Assembly: GCA_050874585.1 (NCBI GenBank)
Contig: JBNMKZ010000003.1
Span: 12,474 to 76,473 of the forward strand
DNA length: 64,000 bases
Direction of reading: 5' to 3'
DNA from: Verrucomicrobiota bacterium
Lineage (GTDB): Bacteria > Verrucomicrobiota > Kiritimatiellia > RFP12 > UBA1067
Part shown: piece by piece, positions 15,152-38,453 of the stretch
Position numbering within the stretch: the first letter of the stretch is position 1
How the letters are laid out: every line of letters begins with the position of its first letter
Made by a program: the position numbers and the translations under genes
Notes under the pieces: model-generated
Told to the model about the DNA's origin: nothing
Databases searched by the model: none
What the model saw: only the letters and a program-made list of their open reading frames with translations

Positions 15152-15164
15152 CTAACAGACAGCG

Positions 15165-15430: not shown

Positions 15431-15435
15431 GCCCG

Positions 15436-15753: not shown

Positions 15754-15768
15754 CGTAGTTCTCCTTTG

Positions 15769-17505: not shown

Positions 17506-17524
17506 TTTGAAGTCCTTTCTCGTT

Positions 17525-22554: not shown

Positions 22555-23792
22555 TGTGCGAGTGGAAACAGATCCCGTTCGGCGAGTGTTTTGAGCTGCA
22601 CAGGAACAACACCTGTGCCCGTGCCTTTATGGGAAATGCTGGATCGATTCAGAACATTCACTACGGCGACATCCTCGTGAAGTACGGGGCGGTTGTCGAT
22701 CTGGGCAAAGAGGAAGTTCCGTATCTCACGGAGGACGGTGAGAAGTGTGCCCCGAAGGATTATCTCAAAGACGGTGACATCGTGATCGCCGACACGGCAG
22801 AGGACGAGATCGCGGGGAAGGTCGTCGAAGTGCGAGGGCTGGGCGACCGTAAGGCGACGGCTGGCCTGCACACGGTCATGTGCCGCCCCAAGGACGGCGA
22901 AATGTTCGAGCCGGGCTGGTTGGGCTATTGGATGAACTCAAAGGGCTATCATGACCAGCTCATTTCAATGATGACCGGCATCAAGGTGTTGTCGCTCTCG
23001 CGGGCAAACTTCGCGAAGACGTACATCTGTGTACCCAAGCGCGAGGAACAGCGACGGATTGTGTCCGCTTTCAATGACGCGGATCGGCTGATCGCCAATC
23101 TTGAAAAGCGGATCGCCAAGCGCAAGCTCATCAAGCAGGGGATGATGCAGCAACTTCTCACCGGGGAGGTGCGTCTGCCCGGTTTTAAGGGGGAGTGGGT
23201 TGAGAAGGCAATTGGTAATTTCGCGGATGTTGTTACTGGTGCCACACCGAGTACAGTGTGTGCGGCGTATTGGGGTGGTGATATACGATGGATGAGCTCA
23301 GGGGAATTGAACCTGAAAGAAATCCATGATGTTGAAGGGCGAATTACAAAAGCTGGATTTAATGCTGCCAGCACACATATGGTTCCTGTTGGGTGTGTGC
23401 TGATAGGACTTGCTGGCCAAGGAAAGACTCGTGGAACGGCGGCTTACAATCATGTGGAGCTTTGCACGAATCAGTCAATTGCTTCTATTCTTCCGAATGA
23501 TTCCTATGTGTCTCGGTTGCTGTACTACATTCTCGACAGCAAGTATGAGATGCTTCGAGATATTTCATCTGGAGGAGGTGGCAGAGGCGGTTTGAGCAAG
23601 GAAACGCTTGAAACAGTCAAGGTCACCATGCCGTCAAGCAAGGAAGAACAGTCTGCCATCGCAGGGATCTTGACGGATTGCGACGCTGAGATCTCGACGC
23701 TTGAGCGCAAGCTGGCGAAGTATCGTCAGCTCAAAAGCGGCATGATGAGCGAACTGCTGACGGGGAATGTTCGTCTCGGGGAGGGCAAGTGA
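22554..23792 (+). CDS. hsdS: Type I restriction-modification specificity subunit S (two TRDs)
   Basis: Two conserved spacer helices, 'REEQRRIVSAFNDADRLIANLEKRIAKRKLIKQGMMQQLLTG' and 'KEEQSAIAGILTDCDAEISTLERKLAKYRQLKSGMMSELLTG'. The start overlaps the hsdM stop. Confidence 0.9.
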   Translation: MCEWKQIPFGECFELHRNNTCARAFMGNAGSIQNIHYGDILVKYGAVVDLGKEEVPYLTEDGEKCAPKDYLKDGDIVIADTAEDEIAGKVVEVRGLGDRKATAGLHTVMCRPKDGEMFEPGWLGYWMNSKGYHDQLISMMTGIKVLSLSRANFAKTYICVPKREEQRRIVSAFNDADRLIANLEKRIAKRKLIKQGMMQQLLTGEVRLPGFKGEWVEKAIGNFADVVTGATPSTVCAAYWGGDIRWMSSGELNLKEIHDVEGRITKAGFNAASTHMVPVGCVLIGLAGQGKTRGTAAYNHVELCTNQSIASILPNDSYVSRLLYYILDSKYEMLRDISSGGGGRGGLSKETLETVKVTMPSSKEEQSAIAGILTDCDAEISTLERKLAKYRQLKSGMMSELLTGNVRLGEGK

Positions 23793-23847
23793 GATGGAAG
23801 CGCGACCCTCCGTGCTGAACAAGTGATTTCAAAAGGAGAAACGACCT

Positions 23848-26800
23848 ATGCCTAACTCTCTCAACAATTCCGGAACTGCCGTGGGTGCGCCCGAGATCGC
23901 GACGCAGCAGCGGCTCATCGAGCTGTTCGAGCAGAACCTGCAGTACACCTATCTTGGTGACTTGAGCGAAGAGGAGAACCAGAACATCCGCACGGATGAT
24001 CTCGCCCTCTTCCTGACACGGCGCGGACACTCGGCCGAGATGATCAACAAGACTGTCGCCCAGCTGCATGAGGCGGCGAACGACTTGAGCCAGGGACTCT
24101 ACAAGGCGAACAAGGAGGTGTACTCGCTTCTCCGCTACGGGGTCAAGGTCCAGAATGCGGACGGCGGATATGACACGGTCGAGCTGATCGACTTTGCACA
24201 CCCGGAAGACAACGACTTTGCCGTCGCCGAGGAGGTGACGGTCAGCTTCGGCGACTACACAAAGCGTCCCGATCTCGTCATCTACGTGAACGGCATCGCC
24301 CTTGCGGTCATCGAGCTGAAGAAGGCCAGCGTGACGGTGATGAACGGCATCTGCCAGAACATCAACAACCAGGGCGCGATGTTCATCAAGAAGTTCTTCA
24401 CGACGATGCAGCTCGTCTGCGCGGGCAACTCCAGCGAGGGTCTGCGCTATGGGACGGTCGAGACGTCGGCGAAGTTCTACCTCGAGTGGAAGCACGACGG
24501 GTTCGACAAGCGGGACGACGAACGCGAGGCGACGGATGCGGTGCTGGAGCAGGGCGCGGCGCAGTTCGCCGAGAAGCTCGACGGACAGGTGTACGAAATG
24601 TTCTCCAAGCGGCGGTTCCTTGAGATCGTCCGCAACTTCGTCATCTTCGACAAAGGCCGTAAGAAACTCTGCCGCTACAACCAGTTCTACGGCATCCGCC
24701 GCGCCCTCAAGCGGCTCGGCAAGAACGAGGGCGGCATCATCTGGCATTCGCAGGGGTCGGGCAAGTCGCTCACGATGGTGTGGCTCTCGAAGCTCGTCAT
24801 CGAGGGTGATCCCGAGGCGCGTGTGCTGATCGTGACCGACCGCGACGAACTGGACGACCAGATCGAGAAGCTCTTTCTCGGCGTGGACGAGGGAATCGTG
24901 CGGACGAAGAGCGGCAAGCATCTCCTCGACATCCTCAACGACCCTGCGGGCGGGCGTGTCATCTGCTCCCTCGTCCACAAGTTCGGGCATCGCGGCAAGA
25001 GCGAGGACGAGGCCAGCGAGGCGGACTACGCCAAGTACGTCGCCGAGCTGAAGGCCTCGCTTCCGGCGGACTTCTCCGCAAAGGGACACATCACCGTGTT
25101 CGTCGACGAGTGCCATCGGACGCAGTCGGGCAAACTGCATCAGGCGATGAAGGCGATCATGCCGGACGCCCGGTTCGTCGGCTTCACGGGAACGCCGCTC
25201 CTTAAGAAGGACAAGAAGACGTCGCTGGAGGTGTTCGGCCCGTACATCCACACGTACAAGTTCCCGGAGGCCGTGCGCGACAGGGTCGTCCTCGACCTCC
25301 GCTACGAGGCCCGTGACATTCCGCAGGACGTGACGGCGCAGACGCAGATCGACGCCTGGTTCGAGTCCAAGACGAAGGGGCTCAACGACCGCGCCAAGGC
25401 GAAGCTCAAGGAGAAGTGGGCGACGATGCAGAAGGTGTACTCCTCGCGTGACCGGCTCGCTCGGATCGTCGAGGACATCATCTTCGACTTCAACACCAAG
25501 CCGCGCCTCATGGACGGGGCGGGCAACGCCATGCTGGTGGCCGACTCGATCTACACGGCCTGCAAGTTCTATGAGCTGTTCAAGTCCCACGGTTTCGCGG
25601 GATGTGCGGTCATCTCGTCCTACACGCCCGCCCCGAGCGACGTGGCGACGGATGCGGTCGCCGTGGACGAAAGTACCGAGGCGCAGGAGAAGTTCAACAC
25701 TTACCTCGAAATGATCGGGATAGATCCCGGCGACGACCACAAGCAGGTCGCGAAAAAGCTGGAGGAGTTCGAGAAGGAGGCGAAGCGCGAGTTCGTGGAA
25801 GAGCCAGCGAAGATGAAGGTGCTGATTGTCGTGGACAAGCTCCTCACGGGCTTCGACGCGCCGAAATGCACCTATCTCTACCTCGACAAGCACATGCAGG
25901 ATCACGGGCTCTTTCAGGCGATCTGCCGCGTGAACCGTCTCGACAACGAATCCAAGGACTTCGGGTACATCGTCGACTACCAGAAGCTGTTCGGGGATCT
26001 CCAGAGTTCGCTGGAGATGTATTCCAGCGAGGCGTTCAAGGGGTATGACAAAGAAGACGTCGAAGGGCTCGTCAAGAACATCGTGCAGGAGGCGGACGCG
26101 CACTTCCGCGAGACGCTCGATTCGCTGGAGGCGCTGTGCGAGGGTGTCGAACCGCCCGCGAAGGGTCCGCAGTACCGTAAGTATTTCTGCGGTGAGGGCG
26201 AGCTGACGCCCGAACAGACGGCGGAGTTCGCCCAGCGGCGGAGCAAGCTGTACGCCCTCGTCGGGACGCTGGCGCGGGCCTACGCGCAGCTCAAGCCGCG
26301 CATGGCCGATGCCGGGGTCAGCGAGGCCGACCAGCAGAACTACGAGAAGCGCGTGACGTTCTTCCTCGAACTGCGCAACGACATCGGACAGGCCAGCGGC
26401 GACTTCCTCGACCTGCGTCCGTATGAGCCGGGGATGCGGTACCTCATCGACACCTACATCAACGCCAGCGAAAGCGAGAAACTCAACATCCTCGACGATT
26501 TCACCTTGCTCGACTTCATTGTCGGCAAGGAGGACGAGTCCGAGGGGAAGGAGCCGGATAAGGACGAGAAGGACAGCGTCGCCGAAACCATCGAGAACAA
26601 CGCGACGAAGGAACTCATCCGTCGGCGGTCGATGAACCCCGCGTTCTACGAGAAGATGTCGGCCGTCCTTAAGAAGCTGATCGACGACCGCAAGGCGGGC
26701 GTCCTCGCGTACAGGGATCTTCTGAACGAGTACCGCAAGCTCGCCGAGTCGCTGAAGAATCCCGAAGGATCGGGACACTATCCGGCAGCCATCGCCGCCG

Positions 26801-27018
26801 AGAACAATCCGCTCGTGAACGCCCTCTACGACAACTTCGGCGAGGACGAGGATCTGGCACTCAACCTCAATCAGGCGATTCTCGGGACGAAGATTCCCGG
26901 CTTCCAGTTCAATCCCGCCGCGATGCAGCAGATCAAGGCCGCGCTCTATGCCGTGCTGGAAGACGAGGAAAAGGTCGAGAAGGCCTACGACATACTGGTT
27001 GCACAGGAGGAGGCGTGA
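23848..27018 (+). CDS. hsdR: Type I restriction endonuclease subunit R
   Basis: N-terminal nuclease 'PDLVIYVNGIALAVIELKK', helicase motif I 'HSQGSGKSLT', motif II 'FVDECHRTQ'. 1056 aa. The 1015-aa antisense ORF is rejected. Confidence 0.9.
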   Translation: MPNSLNNSGTAVGAPEIATQQRLIELFEQNLQYTYLGDLSEEENQNIRTDDLALFLTRRGHSAEMINKTVAQLHEAANDLSQGLYKANKEVYSLLRYGVKVQNADGGYDTVELIDFAHPEDNDFAVAEEVTVSFGDYTKRPDLVIYVNGIALAVIELKKASVTVMNGICQNINNQGAMFIKKFFTTMQLVCAGNSSEGLRYGTVETSAKFYLEWKHDGFDKRDDEREATDAVLEQGAAQFAEKLDGQVYEMFSKRRFLEIVRNFVIFDKGRKKLCRYNQFYGIRRALKRLGKNEGGIIWHSQGSGKSLTMVWLSKLVIEGDPEARVLIVTDRDELDDQIEKLFLGVDEGIVRTKSGKHLLDILNDPAGGRVICSLVHKFGHRGKSEDEASEADYAKYVAELKASLPADFSAKGHITVFVDECHRTQSGKLHQAMKAIMPDARFVGFTGTPLLKKDKKTSLEVFGPYIHTYKFPEAVRDRVVLDLRYEARDIPQDVTAQTQIDAWFESKTKGLNDRAKAKLKEKWATMQKVYSSRDRLARIVEDIIFDFNTKPRLMDGAGNAMLVADSIYTACKFYELFKSHGFAGCAVISSYTPAPSDVATDAVAVDESTEAQEKFNTYLEMIGIDPGDDHKQVAKKLEEFEKEAKREFVEEPAKMKVLIVVDKLLTGFDAPKCTYLYLDKHMQDHGLFQAICRVNRLDNESKDFGYIVDYQKLFGDLQSSLEMYSSEAFKGYDKEDVEGLVKNIVQEADAHFRETLDSLEALCEGVEPPAKGPQYRKYFCGEGELTPEQTAEFAQRRSKLYALVGTLARAYAQLKPRMADAGVSEADQQNYEKRVTFFLELRNDIGQASGDFLDLRPYEPGMRYLIDTYINASESEKLNILDDFTLLDFIVGKEDESEGKEPDKDEKDSVAETIENNATKELIRRRSMNPAFYEKMSAVLKKLIDDRKAGVLAYRDLLNEYRKLAESLKNPEGSGHYPAAIAAENNPLVNALYDNFGEDEDLALNLNQAILGTKIPGFQFNPAAMQQIKAALYAVLEDEEKVEKAYDILVAQEEA

Positions 27019-27752
27019 CGAAGAGCGAGATAAAGGTGGGGGAGGTTCCCGTGTGCGTGACCCGCAAGGGAATCAAGCACATGCACCTTTACGTCCAGCC
27101 CCCGTACGGGCGGGTCGTTGCGTCCGTCCCGGAGGACGCATCAGACGAAAGCATCCAGTTCTTCGTGCGGGAGAACTTCGGCTGGATTCTCCGTGAGCGC
27201 GAGGCGATGCGCGGACAGGCACGGCAGACGCCGAGGGAGTACGTGTCCGGGGAGACGCTGTACGTCTGGGGTGAGCAGAAGTTCCTCACCGTCGAAAAGC
27301 AGAAGGGGTGGGGCGGCGTGAAAATTTCGGGCAACGAGATCACTTTGCTGGCACCGGAGGAGAGCACGGTCAAGAGCCGCCGCGAATACATGACGGACTG
27401 GTATCGGCGGTTGCTGACGGATGCGGTCAACCGGCTCCTGCCGAAATGGGAGAAGAAAACGGGACTCTGCGCCGAGCGGTTCGAGATAAGGGACATGGCG
27501 CGGAGCTGGGGAACGTGCAATCAGGAGAAGGGAAAGATACAGCTGAACCTCCAGCTCTCGCGCAAGCCGAGGGAGGCGCTTGAGTACGTGATCCTCCACG
27601 AGTTGTGCCATTTCAAGTGCCGCAATCACGGGAAGGAGTTTGTCTCCCTGCTTGATCGCTACATGCCCAGCTGGCGCGAAGTCCGCCAGCGGCTTAACGA
27701 TGCGCCGCTTGATTTTGTCGGCGAGGACGAGATGGGGAGCAAGGGACCGTAA
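27015..27752 (+). CDS. YgjP-like metal-dependent hydrolase (DUF45/M48-like), a common type I R-M neighbour
   Basis: HExxH 'ILHELCHFKCRNHGKEF'. GTG 27015 overlaps the hsdR stop. Confidence 0.8.
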   Translation: MTKSEIKVGEVPVCVTRKGIKHMHLYVQPPYGRVVASVPEDASDESIQFFVRENFGWILREREAMRGQARQTPREYVSGETLYVWGEQKFLTVEKQKGWGGVKISGNEITLLAPEESTVKSRREYMTDWYRRLLTDAVNRLLPKWEKKTGLCAERFEIRDMARSWGTCNQEKGKIQLNLQLSRKPREALEYVILHELCHFKCRNHGKEFVSLLDRYMPSWREVRQRLNDAPLDFVGEDEMGSKGP

Positions 27753-27780
27753 GTACATTATGAAAATGTGAGGAACCTCT

Positions 27781-28293
27781 ATGGGGAAAGGCAAGAAGAC
27801 AGAACCGGAAAAGACATTTCTTGAGGCGGAGGACGAAGATATTGTCCTCGACGCTTTCATTGATTTGGTGCCTTCAACAGCCGCTAAATTCAAGGCGGCT
27901 AATGCCAAGTGCCCCCAAAGTTTTGTCAAGAAGTTGCGAGACATAAGATCCTCTCAGCGTGTCGTGGCCGAGGCGGTCGCCGAATATGCTGGCGCCAAGT
28001 TGATGCGCATGAGGTGGGAGTGCCGTCGCCTTGAGCGGAAGAAGATCACCCGCTTGGACCATAACCTCTTGAGCATTTACGACTCGGTTAACGATGCTTT
28101 GCCGATCAAGGAGTTGAGTCCTGAAGATGAAGAGGCGCGGGGACGCGATTTGCTGGACAGATGCAAGGAGCGGGCGGAGCGCATGAACGTGCCGGGATTC
28201 ACGATTGATCCGTCTGTTGCGAAAGGGGAACTGCAATGCATCGCCAACGACGAAGGGTATGAGAAAAGGGAGATAACATGGAAGAGACCGTGA
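27781..28293 (+). CDS. Hypothetical helical protein, first gene of the DUF3732 cassette
   Basis: 170 aa, preceded by 'gaggaacctct'. Acidic N-terminus. No recognised domain. More AT-rich than the flanks. Confidence 0.55.
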   Translation: MGKGKKTEPEKTFLEAEDEDIVLDAFIDLVPSTAAKFKAANAKCPQSFVKKLRDIRSSQRVVAEAVAEYAGAKLMRMRWECRRLERKKITRLDHNLLSIYDSVNDALPIKELSPEDEEARGRDLLDRCKERAERMNVPGFTIDPSVAKGELQCIANDEGYEKREITWKRP

Positions 28294-28796
28294 ACAGGCA
28301 AAAAGGATCGTCGCTTGACGATGTTTGGGATTCTCCTATTGGAGGAGCTTATCTCATTTGGCGTTTTGCGAAAGGGTATGCGAAGGAGCGAAGTCCGGGA
28401 CCGAATGCGCTCCTCGTCTTTGCCGCGATGGCGTTGGTGCTTGACGGGTCGTTCTCGTCCCAGATCGTGCCGGGCGGGAATCTCGCAGACTATTCCTTTG
28501 CATTTCACGATTCGTCGGGGAAGGCGGCGAAGTCGCTGGCGGGTCTGCAAGATCGCATCATGGACCTGCGCGAATGGACGTTGAAGTCGCTTGAGTTCGC
28601 GATGGTGACACGTCTGGTAGAGCTGATTCCAGAAACGGGAGTGGTCGTGCCCGTACTTCAAGAAGAGGTGCGTACATCGGCCAAGCTGGCAAGAGGATTC
28701 AAGGACAACGAGGGACTTAAGGCGGAGAACCTCGGCGGGATATTCGCCCGCACAAAGGACGCCGACATTTCATACTATCTGGGAGTTAGATTCTGA
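28278..28796 (+). CDS. Hypothetical protein, positionally equivalent to the 'middle component' of ABC-3C systems
   Basis: 172 aa. It overlaps the upstream gene by 16 nt, and its stop overlaps the ATPase start (TGATG). Confidence 0.55.
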   Translation: MEETVNRQKGSSLDDVWDSPIGGAYLIWRFAKGYAKERSPGPNALLVFAAMALVLDGSFSSQIVPGGNLADYSFAFHDSSGKAAKSLAGLQDRIMDLREWTLKSLEFAMVTRLVELIPETGVVVPVLQEEVRTSAKLARGFKDNEGLKAENLGGIFARTKDADISYYLGVRF

Positions 28797-30790
28797 TGAA
28801 ACTTCAAATCAAAAAGCTGTTTCTCGTCCAGCGCGGCACTCACGAACTGAAGGCCTACGACTTCGAGCCGGGAAAGCTCAACATCATTGTCGGACAAGGC
28901 GCACGTGGCAAGACGACCGTCTGGTCGATCATCGACTATGTGTGCTGTTCAAACGAGTGCGATATCGACAGCGACATCTCAAATGCAGTCGAGTGGGTGG
29001 GACTTCAGATTCTCACTCCTCTTGGCGTGTATGTCATCGCACGGGAGCTGAAGGACGAACTGAACGCGCAGAGTTCCGTTTACTACATGAAGCACCTTGA
29101 GGCCGATGTTTACGAGGTCGATGGTCTTGAAGTGAAGGCGAACTCGAATAAGGCGGCTGTGAAGGGATTGCTCGACCGCATTTGCGGGGTCGAGGCAATG
29201 ACTACCCAGGCCGACGAGAACGGACAGAAGATATCCTTTTCCATTAGGTATCTTCTTGAAATCGTGGGTCAGGACTATCGGACGCTCTCGGACCAGCAAC
29301 GACTGTTCGCCTGTCAGATTCCCCAGCAGGAGCAGACGGTCATCAAGTATTTCGCGTCGATTCTCGGAGTTCAGGCTGATGCCTTGAATCTGCTCCGAGC
29401 AGAAAAGCAGTCGACAGAGAAGGAACTCAAGCAGCTCAAGGATGAGTACAAGCGAGCTTTGTCCGTTTCCGAGACCTGGAAGAGCGACTTGTCAGATCAG
29501 TTGCTTGAGGCGAAGAAGCTGACGATGATCCCTGCGGACGTAGCAATTCCGAAAGACGTCGACAAGTGCCTTGAACTCGTCAAAAGCATCATCAGCGAGG
29601 CGCGTGAGAAGCCGATGGTATCGTATAATGTGGATCTGCTGGGTGAACTTGCGGAGAAGGTGACGAAGAACAAGGAGCGGAAGTCGGAGCTTGAAATCGA
29701 GATCGAGCAGCTCCAGGTGCGCATCGAGGAGCTTGAAGGGCTCGAGAAGAAGGCCGAAGCGATCCACAAGGAGGCTATTCGCGTGAAGGATCGCATGGAG
29801 ATCGCCAAGTGGATGGCGGCGAACTGGGGCGAATGTGAACAGACGTTCTTCCGCTATCCCTATTCCGATGGAAGGACGGCGGAGGAGGTTCGCGAAGAGA
29901 TATCCCGGCTGAATGCCGCGCTTTCGCAATACGAAAAGACTGCGTTGTCTAATGACAAGGTTCTTCAGTTCAAGAACCTGAACACGGCCGAGAAGAAGCG
30001 GCTCAAGGAACGCCAGACGAAGCTCGCGAAGGAAGTGGCCGAGCTGCGGAGAGAAATAGAGGGGCTGAAGAATCAAGGAAAGTCCGAGAAGGAGCGCATT
30101 GAACAATATGAAAGCGTCAACCAAAGGGCGCGAGAGTTGATCGGAAAACTTGGCAAGACCCAAGACCTTGTCGAGGGCTTGTCCGATGCGGGGGTGATTG
30201 CCAGAAAGATCGAGTCGCTCAAGGCAAAAGTCGACGCGCTTGAGCAGAAGGTCAATCTTGAAAAGGCCCGCGTCGAGGCAATGCAGAAGGACAAGCTGGA
30301 GGAGTTGTCGAGGCGTTCGTTTGAGATCGCCCAGGGAGTCGGGCTTAACGAGTCCTTTAACTTTGCCAATATTCTGTTTGATGCCGACAAGCTCGACTTC
30401 AAGATTCTTCGCGCCGATGGCGAAACCTACCTCAAGAATCGCAAGTCGACGGCAAATCATGTGGCGTTCCACATCGGGGTTACCGCAGCCATGCAGGAGA
30501 TCTGCGCGGGGAATGAGAAATCGTTGCTCCCGGATTTCGTCATTTACGACCAGCCGACACAGGGAAGAAGCGGTGTGGCGGGTGGTGAGAATGTCGGTGA
30601 GAGCTGCTTCGTGAATATCGCGAAGGAACTTTCTAAGTCGGTCGGATTGTCTGCCGAGCGGTGGCAGCCAATCTTGATTGATTCGTGGAGTCGCGAGACC
30701 TTGGATAAACTTGTCGGCGTGGAGTATCACCTTGTTGCTGATCTTGACACGACGAAAGGTTTGGTCCCCGTCGATTGGATGAAAGCATGA
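28796..30790 (+). CDS. DUF3732-type SMC/Rad50-like ABC ATPase with a long coiled-coil insert
   Basis: Walker A 'GQGARGKTT', 'IIDYVCCS' (DUF3732-like), about 300 aa of heptad-rich coiled coil, and Walker B 'FVIYDQPTQG' near the C-terminus. Confidence 0.75.
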   Translation: MKLQIKKLFLVQRGTHELKAYDFEPGKLNIIVGQGARGKTTVWSIIDYVCCSNECDIDSDISNAVEWVGLQILTPLGVYVIARELKDELNAQSSVYYMKHLEADVYEVDGLEVKANSNKAAVKGLLDRICGVEAMTTQADENGQKISFSIRYLLEIVGQDYRTLSDQQRLFACQIPQQEQTVIKYFASILGVQADALNLLRAEKQSTEKELKQLKDEYKRALSVSETWKSDLSDQLLEAKKLTMIPADVAIPKDVDKCLELVKSIISEAREKPMVSYNVDLLGELAEKVTKNKERKSELEIEIEQLQVRIEELEGLEKKAEAIHKEAIRVKDRMEIAKWMAANWGECEQTFFRYPYSDGRTAEEVREEISRLNAALSQYEKTALSNDKVLQFKNLNTAEKKRLKERQTKLAKEVAELRREIEGLKNQGKSEKERIEQYESVNQRARELIGKLGKTQDLVEGLSDAGVIARKIESLKAKVDALEQKVNLEKARVEAMQKDKLEELSRRSFEIAQGVGLNESFNFANILFDADKLDFKILRADGETYLKNRKSTANHVAFHIGVTAAMQEICAGNEKSLLPDFVIYDQPTQGRSGVAGGENVGESCFVNIAKELSKSVGLSAERWQPILIDSWSRETLDKLVGVEYHLVADLDTTKGLVPVDWMKA

Positions 30791-31506
30791 AGCTGCTTCT
30801 TGCTGAGATAGAGAATGTCCGCGAATGTATCCGCAAGCTGGATGCAGACGAGATTACCGACAAGACCAAAGTGGCGGAGGAGCGGGCATATCTGGTCCGA
30901 TGCTTCGACCGTCGCGAATCCCCAATCCTGTATCTCGGCGAGATCTTGAAGGACGAGCTTGGCGAATCCAAGGCGGACAAAGCCAAGTCGGCTGAGATCG
31001 ACGCATTGATCGAAGACGTGCTGAACGACATTGAGGAATCCGGCTATGTTGGTCTCAATCCAAAGTATCCAATCAAGAGGCGCAGGGGAAGGCCGTCAGG
31101 CACGACTCGGCATAAGCCACTCAACCCTCGCACTCGTGTGAATCTGACCGAACACGGATATCGGTTTTCGATGACGTCTGACTTCTCGTGCATCCTTGAT
31201 GAACTCCATAAGCCGCCGGAGTACAAGATTTCGATGTATGAAGGGCTTACGGCTGATAAAGCAATCGAAGTGATCAAGACGTTGGTTGAAGCGGCTAAGG
31301 CGAAGAAGAACGAGGGCTGGGTCAAATCCGAATCTTGGTGGCGTGGCGCGTTTCAAAAAGACGTGTATCTTCGTTTCCGGGACGAGCAGATACAACGCGG
31401 CAAGAAGGCCAATGGACATAACGGCGAGTGGAGAATCATAACCGACGGGGAATTTGACTCTCTTTCTGCTAAAGGCAAATATCACTTTAGGGACAATGTA
31501 AACTGA
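30787..31506 (+). CDS. Hypothetical protein with an AT-hook-like motif, translationally coupled to the ATPase
   Basis: ATG 30787 overlaps the ATPase TGA (ATGA). 'KRRRGRPSGT' has the AT-hook core RGRP. 239 aa. Confidence 0.55.
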   Translation: MKLLLAEIENVRECIRKLDADEITDKTKVAEERAYLVRCFDRRESPILYLGEILKDELGESKADKAKSAEIDALIEDVLNDIEESGYVGLNPKYPIKRRRGRPSGTTRHKPLNPRTRVNLTEHGYRFSMTSDFSCILDELHKPPEYKISMYEGLTADKAIEVIKTLVEAAKAKKNEGWVKSESWWRGAFQKDVYLRFRDEQIQRGKKANGHNGEWRIITDGEFDSLSAKGKYHFRDNVN

Positions 31507-31565
31507 TTTCCGATTCGGGAAATTTACAGCTGATTTTTCGTTTACAGCTAAATTGAGCGGTAGAG

Positions 31566-31594
31566 CGCGGAACTTAACGGTTCCGCGTTTTTTT
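31566..31594 (+). terminator. Rho-independent terminator closing the cargo block
   Basis: Stem cgcggaac / gttccgcg with loop ttaacg, then a T7 run. Confidence 0.7.
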
Positions 31595-31991
31595 ATGCCC
31601 TTTTAACGCCTTTTCAGGCGGCATTAAATTTTTGTTTTACCCTGATGACTTGAACACCGATTTACAGACATGATGGTGGCAGTTCTTTGAGCGAATAGTC
31701 GCCTGTTGCCAAGGCTCGCTCATGGAATTAGCAGCACAACAGCTGCGGAAAGAACTGGCCATGGGCAATAGCCATCGTGTGATGCAGACCATCCCGTGCG
31801 TTTCCGAGGTGATTTTCGTCGGTTTTGAGATTACGGAACAAATCTCAGAGCTGGCAACAAACATCTTTGCCGCTCTGGGAGATGCCTGCTTCATTTTTGG
31901 CAATTGACCACTCGGCAAGAGGCAGACGCGAACCTGCCCGCTTCGCCGGGTGACGAGGGTCTTTGGAAATCTGAAAAAAGTTTGGATTTTT

Positions 31992-32025
31992 CGGGACTGG
32001 GAAGGTTCGGGCCTCGAAAAACGTG
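31992..32025 (+). promoter_or_regulatory. Copy 1 of the bipartite motif, ~50 nt upstream of the sigma-factor gene
   Basis: 'cgggact-gggaaggttcggg-cctcgaaaaacgtg' with a 13-nt spacer. Confidence 0.6.
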
Positions 32026-32072
32026 GCTGCGGGGCGGAGATCGTCTCGCGGCACACAGAAAGGAAAACGAAA

Positions 32073-32645
32073 ATGAAGAAGCCCGAAGTCAGGCTGGAGG
32101 ACACGTTCCCCGCCGTCACCATCAAGTACGTCAACTCGAAGGTCCGCAAGATGACGATCATCTACGGCTTCACGCCGCACGAGGCGGAGGACTTCCGCCA
32201 GAGTATGTACCTCAAACTCGTCAAGGCACTTGACCAGTTCGACCCGAAGCGCGGCGCGAAGCTCGAGACCTTCCTCCATTGCTGCGTCGACAACTTCGCG
32301 AAGGACTACATCACGAAGCTGCGCCGTCCGCAGAAGATCGTGCGCACCGTGTTCGTCCTCGACTCGCCCGTCCGCCGTTGTTCCGTCGACGGCGAGGAGG
32401 AGATTCCGATGATCGAGACGATCCCCGACGAGTCGATGCCGGGGCAGATGCTCGCGGACATCCGCAGCGACGTGAGGAGCGTCCTCGCCCGCCTTGACGA
32501 CCTGCCGCGCCGCATCTGCGAGATGCTCATGGCGGGCGTCGAGAAGCGCGAGCTTCCGAGGCGTCTCGGGATCTCCAAGACGCGCTTCTACGGCGTCGTG
32601 TTCCCACAGCTCAAGGCGCAGTTCAAGGATCTGCTCGATTCCTGA
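32073..32645 (+). CDS. Phage-encoded ECF-like sigma-70 family sigma factor
   Basis: Region 2-like 'AEDFRQSMYLKLVKALDQFDPKRGAKLETFLHCCVDNFAKDYITKLRR'. Region 4 HTH-like 'LPRRICEMLMAGVEKRELPRRLGISKTRFYGVV'. 190 aa, with RBS 'agaaagga'. Confidence 0.7.
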   Translation: MKKPEVRLEDTFPAVTIKYVNSKVRKMTIIYGFTPHEAEDFRQSMYLKLVKALDQFDPKRGAKLETFLHCCVDNFAKDYITKLRRPQKIVRTVFVLDSPVRRCSVDGEEEIPMIETIPDESMPGQMLADIRSDVRSVLARLDDLPRRICEMLMAGVEKRELPRRLGISKTRFYGVVFPQLKAQFKDLLDS

Positions 32646-32652
32646 AAAAGTT

Positions 32653-32686
32653 CGGGACTGAATCTCCCCGGACCTCGAAAAACGAG
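32653..32686 (+). promoter_or_regulatory. Copy 2 of the bipartite motif, upstream of the recombination/replication operon
   Basis: 'cgggact-gaatctccccgga-cctcgaaaaacgag'. It starts 8 nt after the sigma gene stop. Confidence 0.6.
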
Positions 32687-32731
32687 GCCGCGGGGAGTGA
32701 AGACGCGAAAGCGCAGAAGGGAAAAGAAAAC

Positions 32732-33577
32732 ATGAACAAGACAAGATCAGACTATCCGTTCTTCGCCGACATCCCGGCGGAGCAGTATCACCAGGACGCC
32801 CGCGACGGGAAGTTCCTTTCGAGCCATCTGCTCGGCGACTTCCGCAAGTGTCCGCTCACCTACCACCAGAAGATGACGGGCGTGATCCCGCCGCAGGACT
32901 CCGCCGCCTACTGGATGGGCCGTGCCGTCCACACGCTCGTCTGCGAGGGACGCTCCGTGTTCGACAAGGAGTTTCTCGTCACGGACGGGCCGGTGAATCC
33001 GAAGACGGGGGAGCCGTTCGGAAAGCTCACGAAGGCGTACAAGGAGTGGGCCGCTGCGCAGACGCTCGTCCCGGTCAGCACAACCGACTTCGGCTTCATG
33101 GTCAAGCTCCAGAGCGCGGTGTGGCTTCACCCGATCGCGACGCGCCTCTTCGACGGCGGCTGGGCCGAGGGGACGGTGCGCACGGAGTACAACGGCGAAC
33201 CCGTGCAGATCCGAATCGACTATTTCAATCCGAACTTCGTCGATGACACGACGGGCGCGAAGGGCGCGATCATCGACTTGAAGACCTGCGACACCATCGA
33301 CTTCTTCGAGTCCGACGCCCGCAAGTACGGCTACATGCACCAGCTCGCCTTCTACCGCGAGGTGATGCGCATCGCGTCGGGAGAGGAGTTCCCCGTGTAC
33401 ATCGTCGCCGTCGAGAAGAAGGCTCCGTTCAGGGTCGGCGTGTGGAAGCTCGCCACCGAGGCGCTGGACGAGGCGAAGGCCGCGAACGAACGCGCACTCT
33501 CGCTTCTCCGCGAATGCCGCTGCCAGAACGTCTGGCCGACCGGCTACGAGGAACTCCGCGTCATGGACAGCATCTGA
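32732..33577 (+). CDS. PD-(D/E)XK exonuclease (DUF3799/RecE-like)
   Basis: 'GAIIDLKTCD' D-x-K core and the 'YGYMHQLAFY' QxxxY motif. Confidence 0.7.
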   Translation: MNKTRSDYPFFADIPAEQYHQDARDGKFLSSHLLGDFRKCPLTYHQKMTGVIPPQDSAAYWMGRAVHTLVCEGRSVFDKEFLVTDGPVNPKTGEPFGKLTKAYKEWAAAQTLVPVSTTDFGFMVKLQSAVWLHPIATRLFDGGWAEGTVRTEYNGEPVQIRIDYFNPNFVDDTTGAKGAIIDLKTCDTIDFFESDARKYGYMHQLAFYREVMRIASGEEFPVYIVAVEKKAPFRVGVWKLATEALDEAKAANERALSLLRECRCQNVWPTGYEELRVMDSI

Positions 33578-33618
33578 AATCCATCCACCCAAACACACAA
33601 GCAAGAAAGGCAGAAATT

Positions 33619-34362
33619 ATGTCTCTTATCGGTTCAATCACCAAGGGCCGCGAACAGCAGCCGCCCCGCATCATGGTCTACGGCGCGGAGGGCGTCGGCA
33701 AGTCCACCTTCGCGTCACTCGCGCCGAGCCCCGTTTTCGTCCAGACCGAGGACGGCCTCTCGGAGATCGACACGTCGAAGTTCCCGCTGGCGCGGACGTT
33801 CGAGGACGTCGTGATGCAGCTCCAGGCCGTGCGCGACGAACAGCACGAGTACGGTACGCTCGTCATCGACTCGGTCGACTGGCTGGAGCGTCTCGTGTGG
33901 GACCGCGTGTGCGCCGACTACGGCGTGAAGTCAATCGAGAAGGCCGACGGGGGCTACGGGAAGGGGTATGTCCACGCGCTCACCTACTGGCGTCAGATCG
34001 TCTCGATCCTGAACGACATCCGTTCCAAGCGCGGCATGGCCGTGATCCTGATCGCACACGCCGCCGTCGAACGCTTCGAGGACCCGGAACACGAGGCCTA
34101 CGACCGCTACACGCCCCGGATTCACAAGAAGGCGTGTTCGCTCATCTGCGAGTGGGTCGATGCCGTTCTCTTCGCCTCGCGCCGTCTTCGCGTCGATTCG
34201 ACGACGGGCAAGGCCGCCCCGGTCGGCGCGGACGGCGGCGAGCGCATCCTCCGCACCAACGGCTCCCCGGCCTGCATCGCGAAGAACCGCTTCGGGCTTC
34301 CGACGGAACTTCCGCTCTCGTGGGCCGCGTTCGTCGAGGCGCTGAAGGGAGGTGCCAAATGA
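33619..34362 (+). CDS. AAA_24/Sak4-like RecA-fold ATPase
   Basis: Walker A 'VYGAEGVGKST', Walker B 'LVIDSVD'. The upstream Arg-rich part of track ORF 33442.. is rejected. Confidence 0.75.
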   Translation: MSLIGSITKGREQQPPRIMVYGAEGVGKSTFASLAPSPVFVQTEDGLSEIDTSKFPLARTFEDVVMQLQAVRDEQHEYGTLVIDSVDWLERLVWDRVCADYGVKSIEKADGGYGKGYVHALTYWRQIVSILNDIRSKRGMAVILIAHAAVERFEDPEHEAYDRYTPRIHKKACSLICEWVDAVLFASRRLRVDSTTGKAAPVGADGGERILRTNGSPACIAKNRFGLPTELPLSWAAFVEALKGGAK

Positions 34363-34604
34363 AGCGGCAGGTGACGGTTCTCTCTGCGGCGGTCGTGTGC
34401 GACCGCTGCGGCGAGACGATCCGGGCGGGCGAGAGGGCAATCGTCGAGTTCGACGAGAAGAGCGGCAAGTGCCGCTTCCTCCACGAGACCTGCCCCGACC
34501 AGTCCGAGACGGCGAAGGTTCCCCGTCCGCGCAGTCCGAGAGTTTCAGTCCGTGGCGCAGTCCGCGCCCGTTCCGAGAAAAACACCAAGAGAAAGGTTAG
34601 GTAA
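34359..34604 (+). CDS. Small zinc-ribbon-like protein
   Basis: ATGA overlap with the upstream stop. 'CDRCGETI...CRFLHETC'. 81 aa. Confidence 0.45.
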   Translation: MKRQVTVLSAAVVCDRCGETIRAGERAIVEFDEKSGKCRFLHETCPDQSETAKVPRPRSPRVSVRGAVRARSEKNTKRKVR

Positions 34605-34609
34605 AGAAA

Positions 34610-35074
34610 ATGGCACAGTTGAACTTCGATGCCAACGAGGTCCAGCCGCTGGAGGCCTACGAGGCGATCCCGGCGGGAGAGTACGAGGCGGTCATCACGG
34701 ATTCCGAGATGAAGCCCAACAAGGCGGGGACGGGTACGTTCCTCGAGCTGAAGACGGAGATCGTCTCGGGCGACCTTGCGGGTCGCAAGCTGACCGCCCG
34801 CCTGAACCTGAACAACCCCAGCACCAAGGCCGTGGAGATGGCCCGCCGCGAGCTGTCGGCGATCTGCCATGCGGTCGGCGTCCTCCGCCCGGCGGATTCC
34901 TCGGAGCTGCACAACCGTCCGCTACTCATGAAGGTGAAGCTCGTGAAGCGCGACGACGGCACCGCCTCGAACGAGGTCGGCGGCTGGAGGGCGAAGGAGG
35001 CGGCCGCGCCCGCGACCCCGACGGCGGCGGCGAACGCCCAGGCCGCGCAGGGGACCGCACCGTGGAAGCGGTAA
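34610..35074 (+). CDS. DUF669-family phage protein (SSB-like partner of AAA_24 ATPases)
   Basis: 'FDANEVQPLEAYEAIPAGEYEAVITDSEMKPNKAGTGTFLELKTEIVSG', a typical DUF669 N-terminus and gene order. Confidence 0.65.
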   Translation: MAQLNFDANEVQPLEAYEAIPAGEYEAVITDSEMKPNKAGTGTFLELKTEIVSGDLAGRKLTARLNLNNPSTKAVEMARRELSAICHAVGVLRPADSSELHNRPLLMKVKLVKRDDGTASNEVGGWRAKEAAAPATPTAAANAQAAQGTAPWKR

Positions 35075-35412
35075 GCGTCGAGCTGCCGTGGCCGCCCAGC
35101 GTGAACCGCTACTACCGGGTGTTCCGAAACCGAATCCTCATATCGAGGGACGGACGGAAGTACAGGATGGTGGCGGTGTCGAGGCTGGGCGGCCTCAATC
35201 GGAAGCTCACGGGGGAGGTGTCGGTCGAGATCGACCTCTATCCCCCGGACCGTAGGAGGCGCGACATCGACAACCCGCTGAAGTGCCTCCTCGACTCGAT
35301 GACCCACGCCGGGGTCTACGAGGACGATTCGCAGATCAAGGACATCGAGCTGCACATGCGAGAGCCGATGCCCCCGGAGGGAATGGTGCATGTGACCTTA
35401 AAGGAGAAATGA
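35062..35412 (+). CDS. rusA: RusA-family Holliday junction resolvase
   Basis: 'LPWPPSVNRYY...DIDNPLKCLLDSMTHAGVYEDDSQI'. GTG 35062 is the first in-frame start. Confidence 0.8.
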   Translation: MEAVSVELPWPPSVNRYYRVFRNRILISRDGRKYRMVAVSRLGGLNRKLTGEVSVEIDLYPPDRRRRDIDNPLKCLLDSMTHAGVYEDDSQIKDIELHMREPMPPEGMVHVTLKEK

Positions 35413-35414
35413 CA

Positions 35415-35672
35415 ATGTCGGACAAAGGAAACGAGGAGCGGGAGTTCATCCCGGAGTGGCGCAGAAGGCTTGAGGCGAAGAAGAAGATCGTGCAGGAGTT
35501 CATGGAGAGCCTCGACGACGACACGCTCTTCCGCGCCGCGCTCCTCTTCATGCTGGGGAACGACGATGCCGCCGTCATGAAGGAGATGAAGCTCGACGAG
35601 TTCGCCTTGAAGTCGATCAAGGAGCGGCTCGAGACGGGGCTTCGCCTTGCGGGGATCGAAACGAGGAAGTAG
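35415..35672 (+). CDS. Hypothetical small protein
   Basis: 'aaggag' lies 8 nt upstream of ATG 35415. 85 aa. Confidence 0.5.
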   Translation: MSDKGNEEREFIPEWRRRLEAKKKIVQEFMESLDDDTLFRAALLFMLGNDDAAVMKEMKLDEFALKSIKERLETGLRLAGIETRK

Positions 35673-35675
35673 GCG

Positions 35676-37391
35676 ATGATGACCTTGAGGGACTACCAGT
35701 CCGACGCCGTCGCTTCCGTATGGAAGCATCTGCGCGAGAAGGACACCAACCCGTGCGTCGTGATACCGACCGCCGGGGGAAAGTCCCTCTGCATCGCGCA
35801 GGTGGCGAAGGACGCCGTGACGAACTGGGGCGGGCGCGTCCTGTGCCTTGCGCACGTCAAGGAGCTGATCGAGCAGAACGCGGCGAAGATCAGGGCGATC
35901 TGCCCGGAGCTGAAGGTCGGCGTGTACTCGGCGGGCCTCGACAGCAGGGACACGAGTGAGCCGGTCATCGTCGCTGGCATCCAGTCGATCTGTGGACACG
36001 CGGATCTCTTCAAGCCGTTCGACATCATCATGGTGGACGAGGCGCATCTCATTCCGAGCGAAGGCGAGGGACGTTACCGCACCTTCCTCGCCGAGATGAA
36101 GGAGCGCAATCCGAACGTCCGTCTGATCGGATGGACGGCGACGCCGTACCGCACAAAGGGCGGCCTCATCTGCAGGCCGGAGAACCTCCTGAACGAGGTG
36201 TGCTACGAGATCTCCGTGAAGACCCTCATAAACCGTGGCTTCATCTCGCATCTCGTCTCGAAGTCCGGGACGGTCAAGCCAGACCTCTCGAACCTGCACA
36301 TCCGCGCGGGCGAGTTCGTCCAGGAGGACATTGACGCGGCGATGGGCGACGATTCAATCGTCACCTCGGCCTGCCGCGAGATCGTCGACCTCACGAAGAA
36401 CCGCAAGACGTGTCTCATCTTCTGCACGTCCGTGAAGCATTGCGAACGGGTGGCGGAGCTGATCCGGCGATTCTCCGGCGAGGAGTGCCCCGTTGTGACG
36501 GGCGACACGCCCCCGGAGGAGCGGGCGGACACCATCCGCCGCATGAGGGGCGAGACAGTCAAGGTCGGGCTCTTCGACGAGGAGTTGAAGCCGATCCGCT
36601 ACTGCTGCAACGTCTCGGTTCTCACGACGGGGACGGACATTCCGAACATCGACACGGTCGTTCTCCTGCGTCTGACCGCCAGTGCGGGGCTTCTCGTGCA
36701 GATGGTCGGGCGCGGCTTCCGGCTCTCGCCCAAGACGGGCAAGACCGAGTGCCTCGTCCTCGACTACGGGAAGAACATCGAGCGTTTCGGATGCATCGAC
36801 CAGATCAAGGCGACCGAGCCGAAGGGCGGACCCCGCGAGGGACCGCTGGCGAAGGAGTGCCCCCAGTGCCGGACGATGATGCCGCTGGCGCAGATGTGCT
36901 GCCCGAACTGCGGCTACCTCTTCGAGCGCAAGGAACGCGAGACCCATCTCGACTCCCGCGCCTCGTCCCTCGGAATCATATCAGGCGAAGTGGTCGACGA
37001 GGACTACGATGTCCGCGACGTGGACTACCGCGTGTGGCTCAAGCGGGATGCGAAGCCGGGTGCGCCGAGGACGGTTAGGATCACCTACACGATTGACCTC
37101 ATGACGCAGTTCTCGGAATGGCTCTGCCCGGAACACAGCGGCTACGCCCGCAAGAAGTTCGAGACGTGGTGGAAGAAGCACACCCTTGAGGGAACGCCTA
37201 TGCCCGGAACCGCCGACGATGTCTGCGAGTTCGCGTTCATGGGCATGATCCGCCAGCCGAGGAAGATCGCGGTGCGGCGCGTCTCCGGGTCGAAGTACCC
37301 GGAGATCATCGGGTACGAACTCGCCGACGAGCCGGAGAAGGTCGCTCCGTCGGAATCCGAGTACATGGAAGATGACGACCTTCCGTTTTGA
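35676..37391 (+). CDS. SF2 (DEAD/DEAH-box) DNA helicase with a C-terminal zinc ribbon
   Basis: 'LRDYQSDAV', motif I 'PTAGGKS', motif II 'MVDEAH', Zn ribbon 'CPQCRTMM...CPNCGY'. Confidence 0.8.
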   Translation: MMTLRDYQSDAVASVWKHLREKDTNPCVVIPTAGGKSLCIAQVAKDAVTNWGGRVLCLAHVKELIEQNAAKIRAICPELKVGVYSAGLDSRDTSEPVIVAGIQSICGHADLFKPFDIIMVDEAHLIPSEGEGRYRTFLAEMKERNPNVRLIGWTATPYRTKGGLICRPENLLNEVCYEISVKTLINRGFISHLVSKSGTVKPDLSNLHIRAGEFVQEDIDAAMGDDSIVTSACREIVDLTKNRKTCLIFCTSVKHCERVAELIRRFSGEECPVVTGDTPPEERADTIRRMRGETVKVGLFDEELKPIRYCCNVSVLTTGTDIPNIDTVVLLRLTASAGLLVQMVGRGFRLSPKTGKTECLVLDYGKNIERFGCIDQIKATEPKGGPREGPLAKECPQCRTMMPLAQMCCPNCGYLFERKERETHLDSRASSLGIISGEVVDEDYDVRDVDYRVWLKRDAKPGAPRTVRITYTIDLMTQFSEWLCPEHSGYARKKFETWWKKHTLEGTPMPGTADDVCEFAFMGMIRQPRKIAVRRVSGSKYPEIIGYELADEPEKVAPSESEYMEDDDLPF

Positions 37392-37399
37392 GAAAGGCA

Positions 37400-37768
37400 A
37401 TGGAGATGGACAGGGAGAAGATTCACGAACTGATGTTCAGGCTCTGGTGGTGGGCGCGTGTGTATGCGATCTACGCCGCGATCCTGTTCGCGATCCTGTG
37501 GGCGGTCGCGAACTGCTGCGCGGGATGCGCGAACGAATCGCCGTCCGCGCCGAAGCGGGAGGCGGCGGCCGCCCCGCCGACGCTCCTTTCCGAGCGTCTC
37601 TCCGGGATGATGGAGGAGATGCGGCGGGCGGGATGCTGGCCGATGGAGTTCTCGGTGTCGTTCTCGCCGCCGACGAACTACTCGGTCTCGGTCACCGGCA
37701 AATACTACGATGCGCTCGACCGCAACCGCACCAACCTCGTCAACCGAAACGAAGGGAAAGGGAACTAA
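37400..37768 (+). CDS. Hypothetical membrane protein
   Basis: One TM segment 'VYAIYAAILFAILWAVANCCAGC'. The track start at 37388 is TTG. Confidence 0.45.
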   Translation: MEMDREKIHELMFRLWWWARVYAIYAAILFAILWAVANCCAGCANESPSAPKREAAAAPPTLLSERLSGMMEEMRRAGCWPMEFSVSFSPPTNYSVSVTGKYYDALDRNRTNLVNRNEGKGN

Positions 37769-37771
37769 AAG

Positions 37772-37924
37772 ATGGACTGTCTCATTGGAAGTGGGCTTTG
37801 CCCCGTGAAGCGCGAGCTTCTTCACTGGAAGCGCACGGCGCACTATTTCGCCGCCCTGGCGATGGTGAACTTCATCGCCGCCTGGGCGATTGCGCTCTAC
37901 AAGGCGACGGGAGGTGTGCATTGA
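37772..37924 (+). CDS. Putative 50-aa membrane micro-protein
   Basis: The ATG comes 4 nt after the upstream stop. Hydrophobic 'FAALAMVNFIAAWAIALY'. Below the ORF-track cutoff. Confidence 0.3.
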   Translation: MDCLIGSGLCPVKRELLHWKRTAHYFAALAMVNFIAAWAIALYKATGGVH

Positions 37925-38449: not shown

Positions 38450-38453
38450 TCGT

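Follow-up and report, generated by a model that had tools for sequence, protein, structure and literature searches.

A predicted four-component, short-type Lamassu with a head-less LmuA and a modular fourth protein in a Verrucomicrobiota prophage

Described Lamassu systems and the three core genes

The combination of CTD7 and MC3 marks the Lamassu subfamily that includes the DdmABC system of V. cholerae and the LmuACB system of Salmonella, in which the C-terminal part of LmuA makes all the contacts with LmuB2-LmuC and its release upon the sensing of DNA ends leads to tetramerisation of the C-terminal domain (CTD) and activation of the Cap4 head (10.1101/2025.03.14.643221). The Lamassu systems tested to date all need the enzymatic activity of LmuA (PMC10586767). 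A published survey also mentions a short Lamassu, Clade O, whose LmuA has no effector domain, whose LmuB and LmuC are full length, and which is present in more than 40 species (PMC12663957). In the systems that combine an MBL nuclease with a protease-bearing LmuA, a separate extra protein performs the final action once LmuA oligomerises, and both parts are enzymes (PMC12799240). Here, we analyse a cassette of four genes (P1 to P4) in a 64,000-nucleotide stretch of a Verrucomicrobiota bacterium (GCA_050874585.1, contig JBNMKZ010000003.1, positions 12,474 to 76,473; hereafter, the window). From its sequence, the cassette is assigned to the Lamassu as a four-component, short-type system (type II, ABC three-component or ABC-3C) of the CTD7-MC3 subfamily, with P3 as LmuB, P2 as LmuC and P1 as an LmuA represented by its CTD7. 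Our reading, which we hold tentatively and at slightly less than an even chance, is that this Lamassu sensor signals to a DNA-binding output provided in trans, the head-less LmuA acting together with a modular P4, and that the outcome would be a change in DNA occupancy or transcription and not an enzymatic attack.

The four genes are encoded on the forward strand, at 27781-28293 (P1, 170 amino acids, aa), 28278-28796 (P2, 172 aa), 28796-30790 (P3, 664 aa) and 30787-31506 (P4, 239 aa from its ATG, or 243 aa if an upstream TTG is used). A first-pass annotation of the same DNA had described four co-directional genes with these boundaries, with which the open reading frame (ORF) list agrees, and the junctions that it gave were read directly: the overlaps are 16 nt between P1 and P2, a single base (TGATG) between P2 and P3, and an ATGA between P3 and P4. 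The motifs that it quoted were all found, namely GQGARGKT, IIDYVCCS and FVIYDQPTQ in P3 and KRRRGRPSGT in P4.

P3 gives a full-length match to the PADLOC LmuB model PDLC03859 (E 2e-61), matches Pfam DUF3732 (E 3e-13) and aligns nearly end to end, using phmmer, with LmuB from solved structures of Lamassu complexes (9HQU_A, E 8e-34; 9NY5_D, E 1.5e-25), to which it is nevertheless only distantly related. These PADLOC, Pfam and PDB matches bear out the proposal that the 664-aa protein is a Rad50/SMC-like ABC ATPase of the DUF3732/LmuB type from an ABC-3C (Lamassu) system. A housekeeping SMC, RecN, RecF or Rad50 origin was checked and excluded, as the NCBIfam ASRP and Rad50 models scored 17.9 bits (cut-off 300) and 13.4 bits (cut-off 700), respectively. 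The nucleotide-binding motifs are intact, with Walker A GQGARGKT at aa 33-40, an S-x-x-N signature-like STAN at 551 and Walker B FVIYDQPTQ at 581, and their positions line up with those of 9HQU_A. Walker A and STAN are present in all the family members checked; the Walker B pattern hhhhDQP(T/S)Q is matched in the window and in the related loci L011, L012 and L001, and finds no match in L002 and L005. No CxxC, as expected for a zinc hook, occurs in P3, and an LmuB of about 660 aa without a zinc hook is a feature reported for the V. cholerae Cap4 clade (PMC12663957).

The small middle component (MC) that had been predicted to precede the ATPase is P2, encoded between P1 and P3, which matches Pfam PF20131 MC3 (E 4e-13) and the LmuC chain 9HQU_D (E 8e-7). 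In P1, residues 48-167 correspond to Pfam PF20283 CTD7 (E 2e-8, exceeding the curated cut-off), preceded by an N-terminal segment of only about 37-47 residues (about aa 1-37 or 1-47) that has no domain match in Pfam, PADLOC, NCBIfam or PHROGs. P1 covers only positions 250-360 of the 373 of the PADLOC LmuA model PDLC03848, and with the P1-family profile the aligned part of the 403-aa LmuA 9HQU_C is residues 267-359 (E 0.017). A Cap4/DUF4297 nuclease head was found neither in P1 nor in P4 with Pfam and PADLOC, and domain-library scans of these two proteins returned no enzymatic effector, so that the cassette has no recognisable one, as the first-pass annotation had noted. The same annotation was right in seeing no effector domain in the 170-aa protein. 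In contrast, its description of P1 as an anonymous helical protein does not stand, P1 being identifiable as an LmuA homologue reduced to the CTD7 docking/oligomerisation domain.

Judged by these matches, every defining Lamassu feature checked is present in the cassette save one, the N-terminal effector head of LmuA. The initial label of an ABC-3C-like system of uncharacterised type is thus kept as regards ABC-3C and can be sharpened to a named family, Lamassu, and to the same CTD7-MC3 subfamily as DdmABC. The cassette shares with the Cap4-CTD7-MC3 Lamassu (DdmABC; LmuACB, 9HQU/9HQX, 9NY5) the gene order lmuA-lmuC-lmuB, the overlapping genes, the MC3 type of LmuC and the CTD7 of LmuA, and the sensing logic (DNA ends or hairpins, ATP, LmuA release and CTD oligomerisation) is presumed here by analogy. 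In contrast to those systems, its LmuA lacks the Cap4 nuclease head of about 240 aa, and the cassette carries an extra overlapping fourth gene 3' of lmuB as well as a conserved tail of cis-elements. The canonical plasmid Lamassu encode an LmuA of 384-389 aa, an MC of 167-169 aa and an LmuB of 654-658 aa, with no overlapping fourth gene. Therefore, we class the cassette outside the Cap4 subfamily in the strict sense, although CTD7 and MC3 are common to both.

Compared by description only, Clade O is similar to the cassette, as in both of them LmuA has no effector domain while LmuB and LmuC are full length. However, the main text of the survey devotes one sentence to this clade and mentions no fourth gene, mechanism or cis sites (PMC12663957), whereas the cassette has both a fourth gene and a tail; moreover, Clade O spans more than 40 species and the cassette family was found in uncultured gut and rumen bacteria. 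The MBL-nuclease systems differ in another way. There, LmuA keeps a protease head and the extra gene encodes an enzyme and lies upstream, whereas here LmuA is head-less and the extra gene is downstream and shows no enzymatic signature.

The absence of the head could also be explained by decay, that is, by a Lamassu remnant in which a deletion truncated LmuA, the system became inactive and an unrelated gene came to lie behind it by chance. The missing effector domain is compatible with this explanation, and so is the rarity of the family: only two close matches (L011 and L012) and one weak partial match (L013) were found in 185,579 species representatives, while tblastn searches of phage and plasmid collections for the cassette and scans of IMG/VR for P4 and P1 found none. 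Nevertheless, the P1 homologues (12 clusters, with identities down to about 54%) are all 167-184 aa long and those of P4 (11 clusters, down to 45%) are all 236-246 aa long, and the lengths and overlaps are kept at identities as low as about 46-54% and within several unrelated flanks. Likewise, the ATPase motifs are intact and all four genes, P1 and P4 included, are under purifying selection, with dN/dS values of 0.04-0.2 where synonymous sites are unsaturated (about 0.19 for P1). A recent truncation of LmuA is argued against by the uniform homologue lengths together with the purifying selection, and the short LmuA is best described from these comparisons as a conserved state under selection and not as decay. 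The remnant explanation is thus largely refuted and we regard it as highly improbable.

The same four genes with the same overlaps were recovered in every readable related locus (L001-L007, L011, L012 and GCA_016648615), in agreement with the expectation that the small genes are co-inherited with the ATPase. The closest genome match is L011, a metagenome-assembled genome (MAG) of Kiritimatiellota from the human gut, in which P4 is 97% identical and synteny extends over 20188-39974. In contrast, the rumen MAG L012 shares with the window only the region from 27781, the ATG of P1, to 31763. These limits indicate that the YgjP-like gene and the restriction-modification (R-M) system located upstream are neighbours and not components, whereas about 250 nt of non-coding DNA 3' of P4 belong to the module. 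YgjP-like genes are often found with hsdR. The YgjP-like metallopeptidase was considered as the missing effector and rejected, as it is not present in any other locus and the module boundary is the P1 ATG in L012.

In three independent flanks, the cassette is located directly 3' of known defence genes: a type I R-M system in the window, RadC, GmrSD-HNH and AbiEii/AbiEi in L002, and DUF87 and DUF4007 (Dnd/Dpt-like) genes in L001. This neighbourhood, whose examination had been recommended in the first-pass annotation, is circumstantial evidence for a role in defence. In L001, the region directly 5' of the cassette (1-6949) encodes a DUF87 ATPase (1759 aa), a DUF4007 protein (289 aa) and a 1411-aa protein, a set that resembles a Dnd/Dpt-type restriction module.

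The fourth protein and its C-terminal module

P4 overlaps lmuB in the ATGA arrangement in every related locus and, from its strict co-inheritance and predicted translational coupling, it is considered a real fourth component. AlphaFold2 modelling on the P4 family alignment gave a confident N-terminal domain of four helices (30787-31062, about aa 1-92; pLDDT about 90), a disordered linker (pLDDT below 50) and a C-terminal domain, hereafter the C-module (31138-31506, modelled from aa 118, with a conserved core at aa 125-239). The AT-hook-like KRRRGRPSGT that had been noticed in the 239-aa protein (31075-31104) lies in the disordered segment, and its RGRP core with basic flanks is invariant in 11/11 close homologues. 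The C-module is the most constrained part of P4, with a pN/pS of 0.11. The earlier view that this protein has no recognisable effector domain stands; what it missed is the modularity of P4 and the conserved tail carrying TTTACA motifs.

Searches of Pfam, NCBIfam, PADLOC and PHROGs returned nothing for P4, and profiles of P4 and of the C-module run against PDB sequences retrieved nothing credible, so that no sequence link connects P4 to the heads of LmuA. In a profile search of 1.84 billion representatives, only five full-length relatives of P4 were obtained, together with about 40 proteins (188-1147 aa) that carry the C-module alone, at their C-terminus, and two proteins that carry the N-domain alone. 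A further homologue search with the C-module profile added just two proteins and brought no annotation. The independence of the two domains is illustrated by L019, where an LmuB 71% identical to P3 is overlapped by a fourth gene, P0042, whose product retains the N-domain of P4 (41% identity over aa 1-88) and has an unrelated C-terminal remainder. This combination of a kept N-domain and a swapped payload indicates that the N-domain goes with the Lamassu core and that the C-terminal half is swappable. We therefore interpret the division of P4 into N-domain and payload, from sequence comparison, as the head/CTD logic of the canonical LmuA spread over two genes; P1 and P4 together amount to 409 aa, approximately the size of one canonical LmuA. 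Pfam and PHROGs searches gave nothing useful for the payload of P0042, for the N-terminal regions of the larger C-module proteins or for the partners of about 450 aa described below.

The C-module was modelled with high confidence (pLDDT 94.5, pTM 0.86) from an alignment of 37 sequences (A3). Foldseek searches with the whole P4 model gave meaningless matches owing to the disordered linker, and with the C-module they retrieved no significant match in the PDB and BFVD (best E about 0.6). The weak matches are nearly all winged-helix DNA binders, including ETS, MarR, OmpR-type proteins, the N-terminal domain of lambda O and phage replication initiators. The order of the elements after a small beta-sheet (helix, strand, short helix, helix and beta-hairpin) fits the core of a winged helix-turn-helix (wHTH), with H40-55, a strand at about 62, H68-71, H75-84, E85-87 and E97-100 corresponding to alpha1-beta1-alpha2-alpha3-beta2-beta3. 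The top conserved motifs, WRGAFQ and RFK.EQI, map to the putative helix-turn-helix and WRI(I)P to the wing. Of the residues in these motifs, F189, F197, Q201 and R216 do not vary in A3, and W215 hardly does. The C-module, novel in sequence and, by these searches, in fold, likely has a winged-helix-like topology, and it is predicted to bind DNA in a sequence-specific manner.

Winged-helix regulators are known to be attached to other defence systems, such as BrxR/CapW and the CARF-wHTH protein Csa3 of type III CRISPR. The resemblance to P4 lies only in the idea of coupling an immune sensor to an output or regulator of the DNA-binding, transcription type. Unlike those proteins, to which no sequence or significant structural similarity was found, P4 has no WYL or CARF ligand domain, is encoded 3' of the ATPase and has its sites 3' of its own gene.

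Sites in the non-coding tail and the C-module beside other systems

The conserved tail of the module, on the same strand, consists in order of a TGTAAA at the end of P4, two TTTACAGCT repeats, a terminator, GATTTACAG and a 30-nt block (31678-31707). Site 1 (31497-31549) comprises the TGTAAA at 31497, overlapping the end of P4, and the two repeats at 31523 and 31541, and is located 5' of the intrinsic terminator (31566-31594). Site 2 and the conserved non-coding block (31658-31763) include GATTTACAG, with its hexamer at 31661, and extend to the end of the module at 31763, the limit of homology with L012. The terminator, which the first-pass annotation had placed at 31566-31594, is confirmed: it folds with an energy of -20.9 kcal/mol (z = -3.8), which none of 200 shuffles matched, and compensatory changes are observed in L001 and L002, although a simple consensus terminator scan did not list it. 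The window, L011, L012 and L001 share the 30-nt block, GGCAGTTCTTTGAGCGAATAGTCGCCTGTT, without a single difference, despite the coding DNA of L001 being only about 67% identical. The block showed no Rfam match, no covariation-supported fold and no ORF with a kept frame, and an RNA element in the tail was rejected given the lack of Rfam match and of covariation.

TTTACAG occurs three times in the 64-kb window, always at site 1 or site 2, and with both strands counted, TTTACA has three occurrences within the 300 nt 3' of P4 versus five in the remaining 63.7 kb. No such hexamer was found at the 5' end of the cassette (27000-27800). Away from the end of P4 and the tail, TTTACA/TGTAAA hexamers are located at four positions (4775, 15107, 17469 and 18205), of which the last three are grouped near the genes for the recombinase and DUF2924, with 18205 in the divergent intergenic region between the DUF2924 gene and an extra methylase gene.

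A similar layout follows the C-module genes in most lineages, with a TTTACA-type set at the stop codon before a terminator and a second set about 50-70 nt after it. L008 displays TTTACAG at the stop codon, a terminator and TTTACAG, L021 displays GGTGTAAAtTTTACACC, a terminator and TTTACAC, and L014, L022 and L023 are alike, L023 having TGTAAAggtcTTTACA across the stop codon. Using dinucleotide-preserving shuffles of each 212-nt region, TTTACA was enriched (P < 0.01) in 7/11 lineage representatives, including L008, L021 and L023, whose tails have no recognisable homology with that of the window. Conversely, no TTTACA site follows the fourth gene of L019, which lacks the C-module.

These palindromes at the stop codon could be interpreted as transcript hairpins bound by the C-module, P4 then modulating termination or read-through. 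Indeed, site 1 is always on the transcript, just 5' of the terminator, and the hairpin of L021 is stable (-12.1 kcal/mol, z = -5). However, this stability is not kept, as that of L023 (-2.5 kcal/mol) is no better than shuffles and that of the window has z = -2; site 2 is a single half-site past the terminator, and both the AT-hook and the wHTH-like topology suggest a duplex DNA ligand. As the sequence is conserved over stabilities that range from -12.1 to -2.5 kcal/mol, and given the negative Rfam and covariation results, half-sites in DNA bound by a protein are favoured over an RNA element, and RNA binding by the C-module seems very unlikely to us.

The C-module is also found beside other systems. 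L021 and L009 encode a CTD7 protein whose N-terminus is cut by the contig end, an MC3 protein, an LmuB with a zinc hook that is distant from P3, and an overlapping C-module protein of 657 aa. The LmuB gene is split in two ORFs in L009 (3-1529) and intact in L021 (801-2852), with C-module genes 99% identical between the two, and the split probably reflects a frameshift or a misassembly. In L008, a CTD10-only protein of 183 aa (137-691, reverse strand) is encoded divergently from the 534-aa C-module protein P0030 (786-2390, forward strand); the CTD10 match exceeds the Pfam cut-off and the contig ends before any MC or LmuB gene. As far as its domain content indicates, this CTD10-only protein is a second kind of head-less LmuA-like protein.

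In L017, L022 and L023, the C-module gene overlaps an upstream partner of 428-461 aa, belonging to no known family, and the pair heads phage replication operons. These two-gene modules (L017, 2414-4488; L022, 6080-9116; L023, 1939-3902) have partners that are weakly homologous among themselves. L022 and L023 display the same TTTACA-terminator-TTTACA tail, while the hexamer is not enriched in L017; in L022, a gene for an AAA_14/DUF4143 ATPase is located just 5' of the module. By sequence resemblance, the two-gene module may be a separate unknown system with the same type of output protein, and the distribution as a whole suggests that the C-module behaves as a shared output or regulatory device for several upstream partners. 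Together with its cis sites, it appears to be common to the CTD10-only variant, the variants with a zinc-hook LmuB and the two-gene module with a partner of about 450 aa.

The same distribution could be taken to mean that P4 is just a local transcription regulator, acting on itself or its neighbours like BrxR/CapW or on phage early genes, and that the core works without it, e.g. by capping or binding DNA ends or with the help of a nuclease encoded by the host. The C-module genes without LmuB that head phage replication operons with the same tail (L017, L022 and L023) are in line with this possibility, as are the position of the sites before the next promoter region and the lack of a catalytic signature in P4. 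Nevertheless, a free regulator would not be expected to overlap lmuB at every locus in a strict ATGA, and the arrangement in L019, where the N-domain stays with the core and the payload changes, is what a docked output would show. Besides, the sites are 3' of P4 and not at the 5' end of the cassette, and a core acting alone is difficult to reconcile with the requirement for LmuA enzymatic activity in all Lamassu tested so far (PMC10586767). We consider a purely local regulator unlikely, though it deserves to be kept in mind.

Prophage setting, proposed mechanism and significance

The cassette was described by the first-pass annotation as prophage cargo beside a type I R-M system, and this location is correct, with a recombinase on the left and phage early, replication and terminase genes on the right. 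The left flank contains a large serine recombinase with DUF2924, an extra N6-methylase, hsdM/S/R and the YgjP-like gene, and the right flank a sigma-70-like gene, a DUF3799 nuclease, a helicase, a Prim-Pol/DUF3987 primase and a gpA terminase. The cassette is also more AT-rich than its surroundings, as had been claimed, with a GC content of 0.50-0.55 versus 0.57-0.63 for the R-M genes and 0.61-0.67 for the phage genes. The sigma-70-like ORF spans 31950-32645; judged by the 57%-identical homologue of L019, the gene probably starts at Met42 (about 32073), which leaves an intergenic region of 566 nt after P4.

This setting raises the possibility that the cassette serves the prophage: the core would sense DNA ends or damage and switch P4 at operators located before the early genes, providing induction control or superinfection immunity and not abortive infection. 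The position of the cassette between the integrase/cargo region and the early genes, followed by the 566-nt regulatory region and the sigma-70-like gene, agrees with such a role, and so do the C-module genes that head phage replication modules in L023 and L022 and the 72%-identical recombinase region that the window shares with L009, which differs in its Lamassu and C-module variant. However, the cassette and its tail move as a unit between unrelated flanks with other downstream genes (L012 and L002), the cassette is 3' of defence genes in three flanks, and L019, a related phage whose sigma gene is 57% identical, lacks both the TTTACA sites and a C-module in its fourth gene. Because of this last observation, P4 as a universal repressor of this phage group was rejected. 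We therefore regard control of the prophage for its own benefit as quite unlikely; it overlaps our reading of P4 as a DNA-binding output and differs from it in who benefits.

The output of the Lamassu sensor through P4 is envisaged as follows. By analogy with the DdmABC and SalEnt LmuACB complexes, whose structures are solved, LmuC and a dimer of LmuB would sequester the CTD7 of P1, DNA ends or hairpins together with ATP would release P1, and the freed P1 would oligomerise via CTD7. The N-domain of P4 would dock on P1 or on the core, so that the release or oligomerisation of P1 would alter the valency or availability of P4. P4 would then act through its AT-hook and C-module at the predicted TTTACA sites. 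These flank the cassette terminator and are followed by the 566-nt regulatory region, the sigma-factor gene and the early genes of the phage. The beneficiary of this output may be either the host, in defence, or the prophage, in the control of its early genes, and both were considered. A more specific and more doubtful version is that a Rad50-like sensor was rewired, the head-less LmuA serving as a releasable oligomerisation switch that assembles P4 on TTTACA operators and switches the prophage early genes, the sigma gene first, on or off. The output would in that case be non-enzymatic and transcriptional, possibly for prophage induction or superinfection control.

Several observations weigh against P4 as a DNA-binding output of the Lamassu core. 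The payload of P0042 differs from that of P4, so a fourth protein need not bind DNA, and in L017, L022 and L023 the C-module genes have no Lamassu neighbour, so that the C-module could be a generic phage regulator, fused or adjacent here by chance. Three C-module lineages (L015, L016 and L020) have no sites. The winged-helix assignment was drawn from topology and from Foldseek matches that are non-significant (best E about 0.6), and TTTACA is a candidate cognate site of the C-module proposed from co-occurrence alone. TTTACA is also a near-consensus -35 hexamer. Site 2 could consequently be a promoter element, although site 1, between the stop codon and the terminator, is not easily explained as a promoter.

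Other features of the prophage concern its methylases and its relationships. A 601-aa N6-adenine methyltransferase (PF02384) with a long C-terminal extension is encoded at 18269-20074, just 5' of hsdM/hsdS/hsdR, and represents a second methylase within the same cargo block. Farther downstream, the prophage encodes a SAM synthetase (45832-46857) and a C5-cytosine methyltransferase fused to an HNH_3 endonuclease domain (50520-52847). The serine recombinase and DUF2924 region (15075-17890) is 72% identical in DNA to positions 4992-7795 of L009, where another Lamassu variant is found, and related prophages appear to swap Lamassu variants.

Lamassu without an LmuA head, a whole clade of which was left unexplained in the published survey, could receive a testable answer for at least one such lineage. 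The candidate answer is that a conserved and modular fourth protein replaces the head in trans, with a payload that looks DNA-binding and cognate sites next to the operon. If this is true, DefenseFinder and PADLOC would gain a rule for Lamassu matches without an LmuA effector domain, and a new DNA-binding fold would be defined together with a predicted recognition motif. It would also mean that the release-and-oligomerise switch of Lamassu drives non-enzymatic outputs, and that gut and rumen prophages carry a reusable output module common to different sensor systems.

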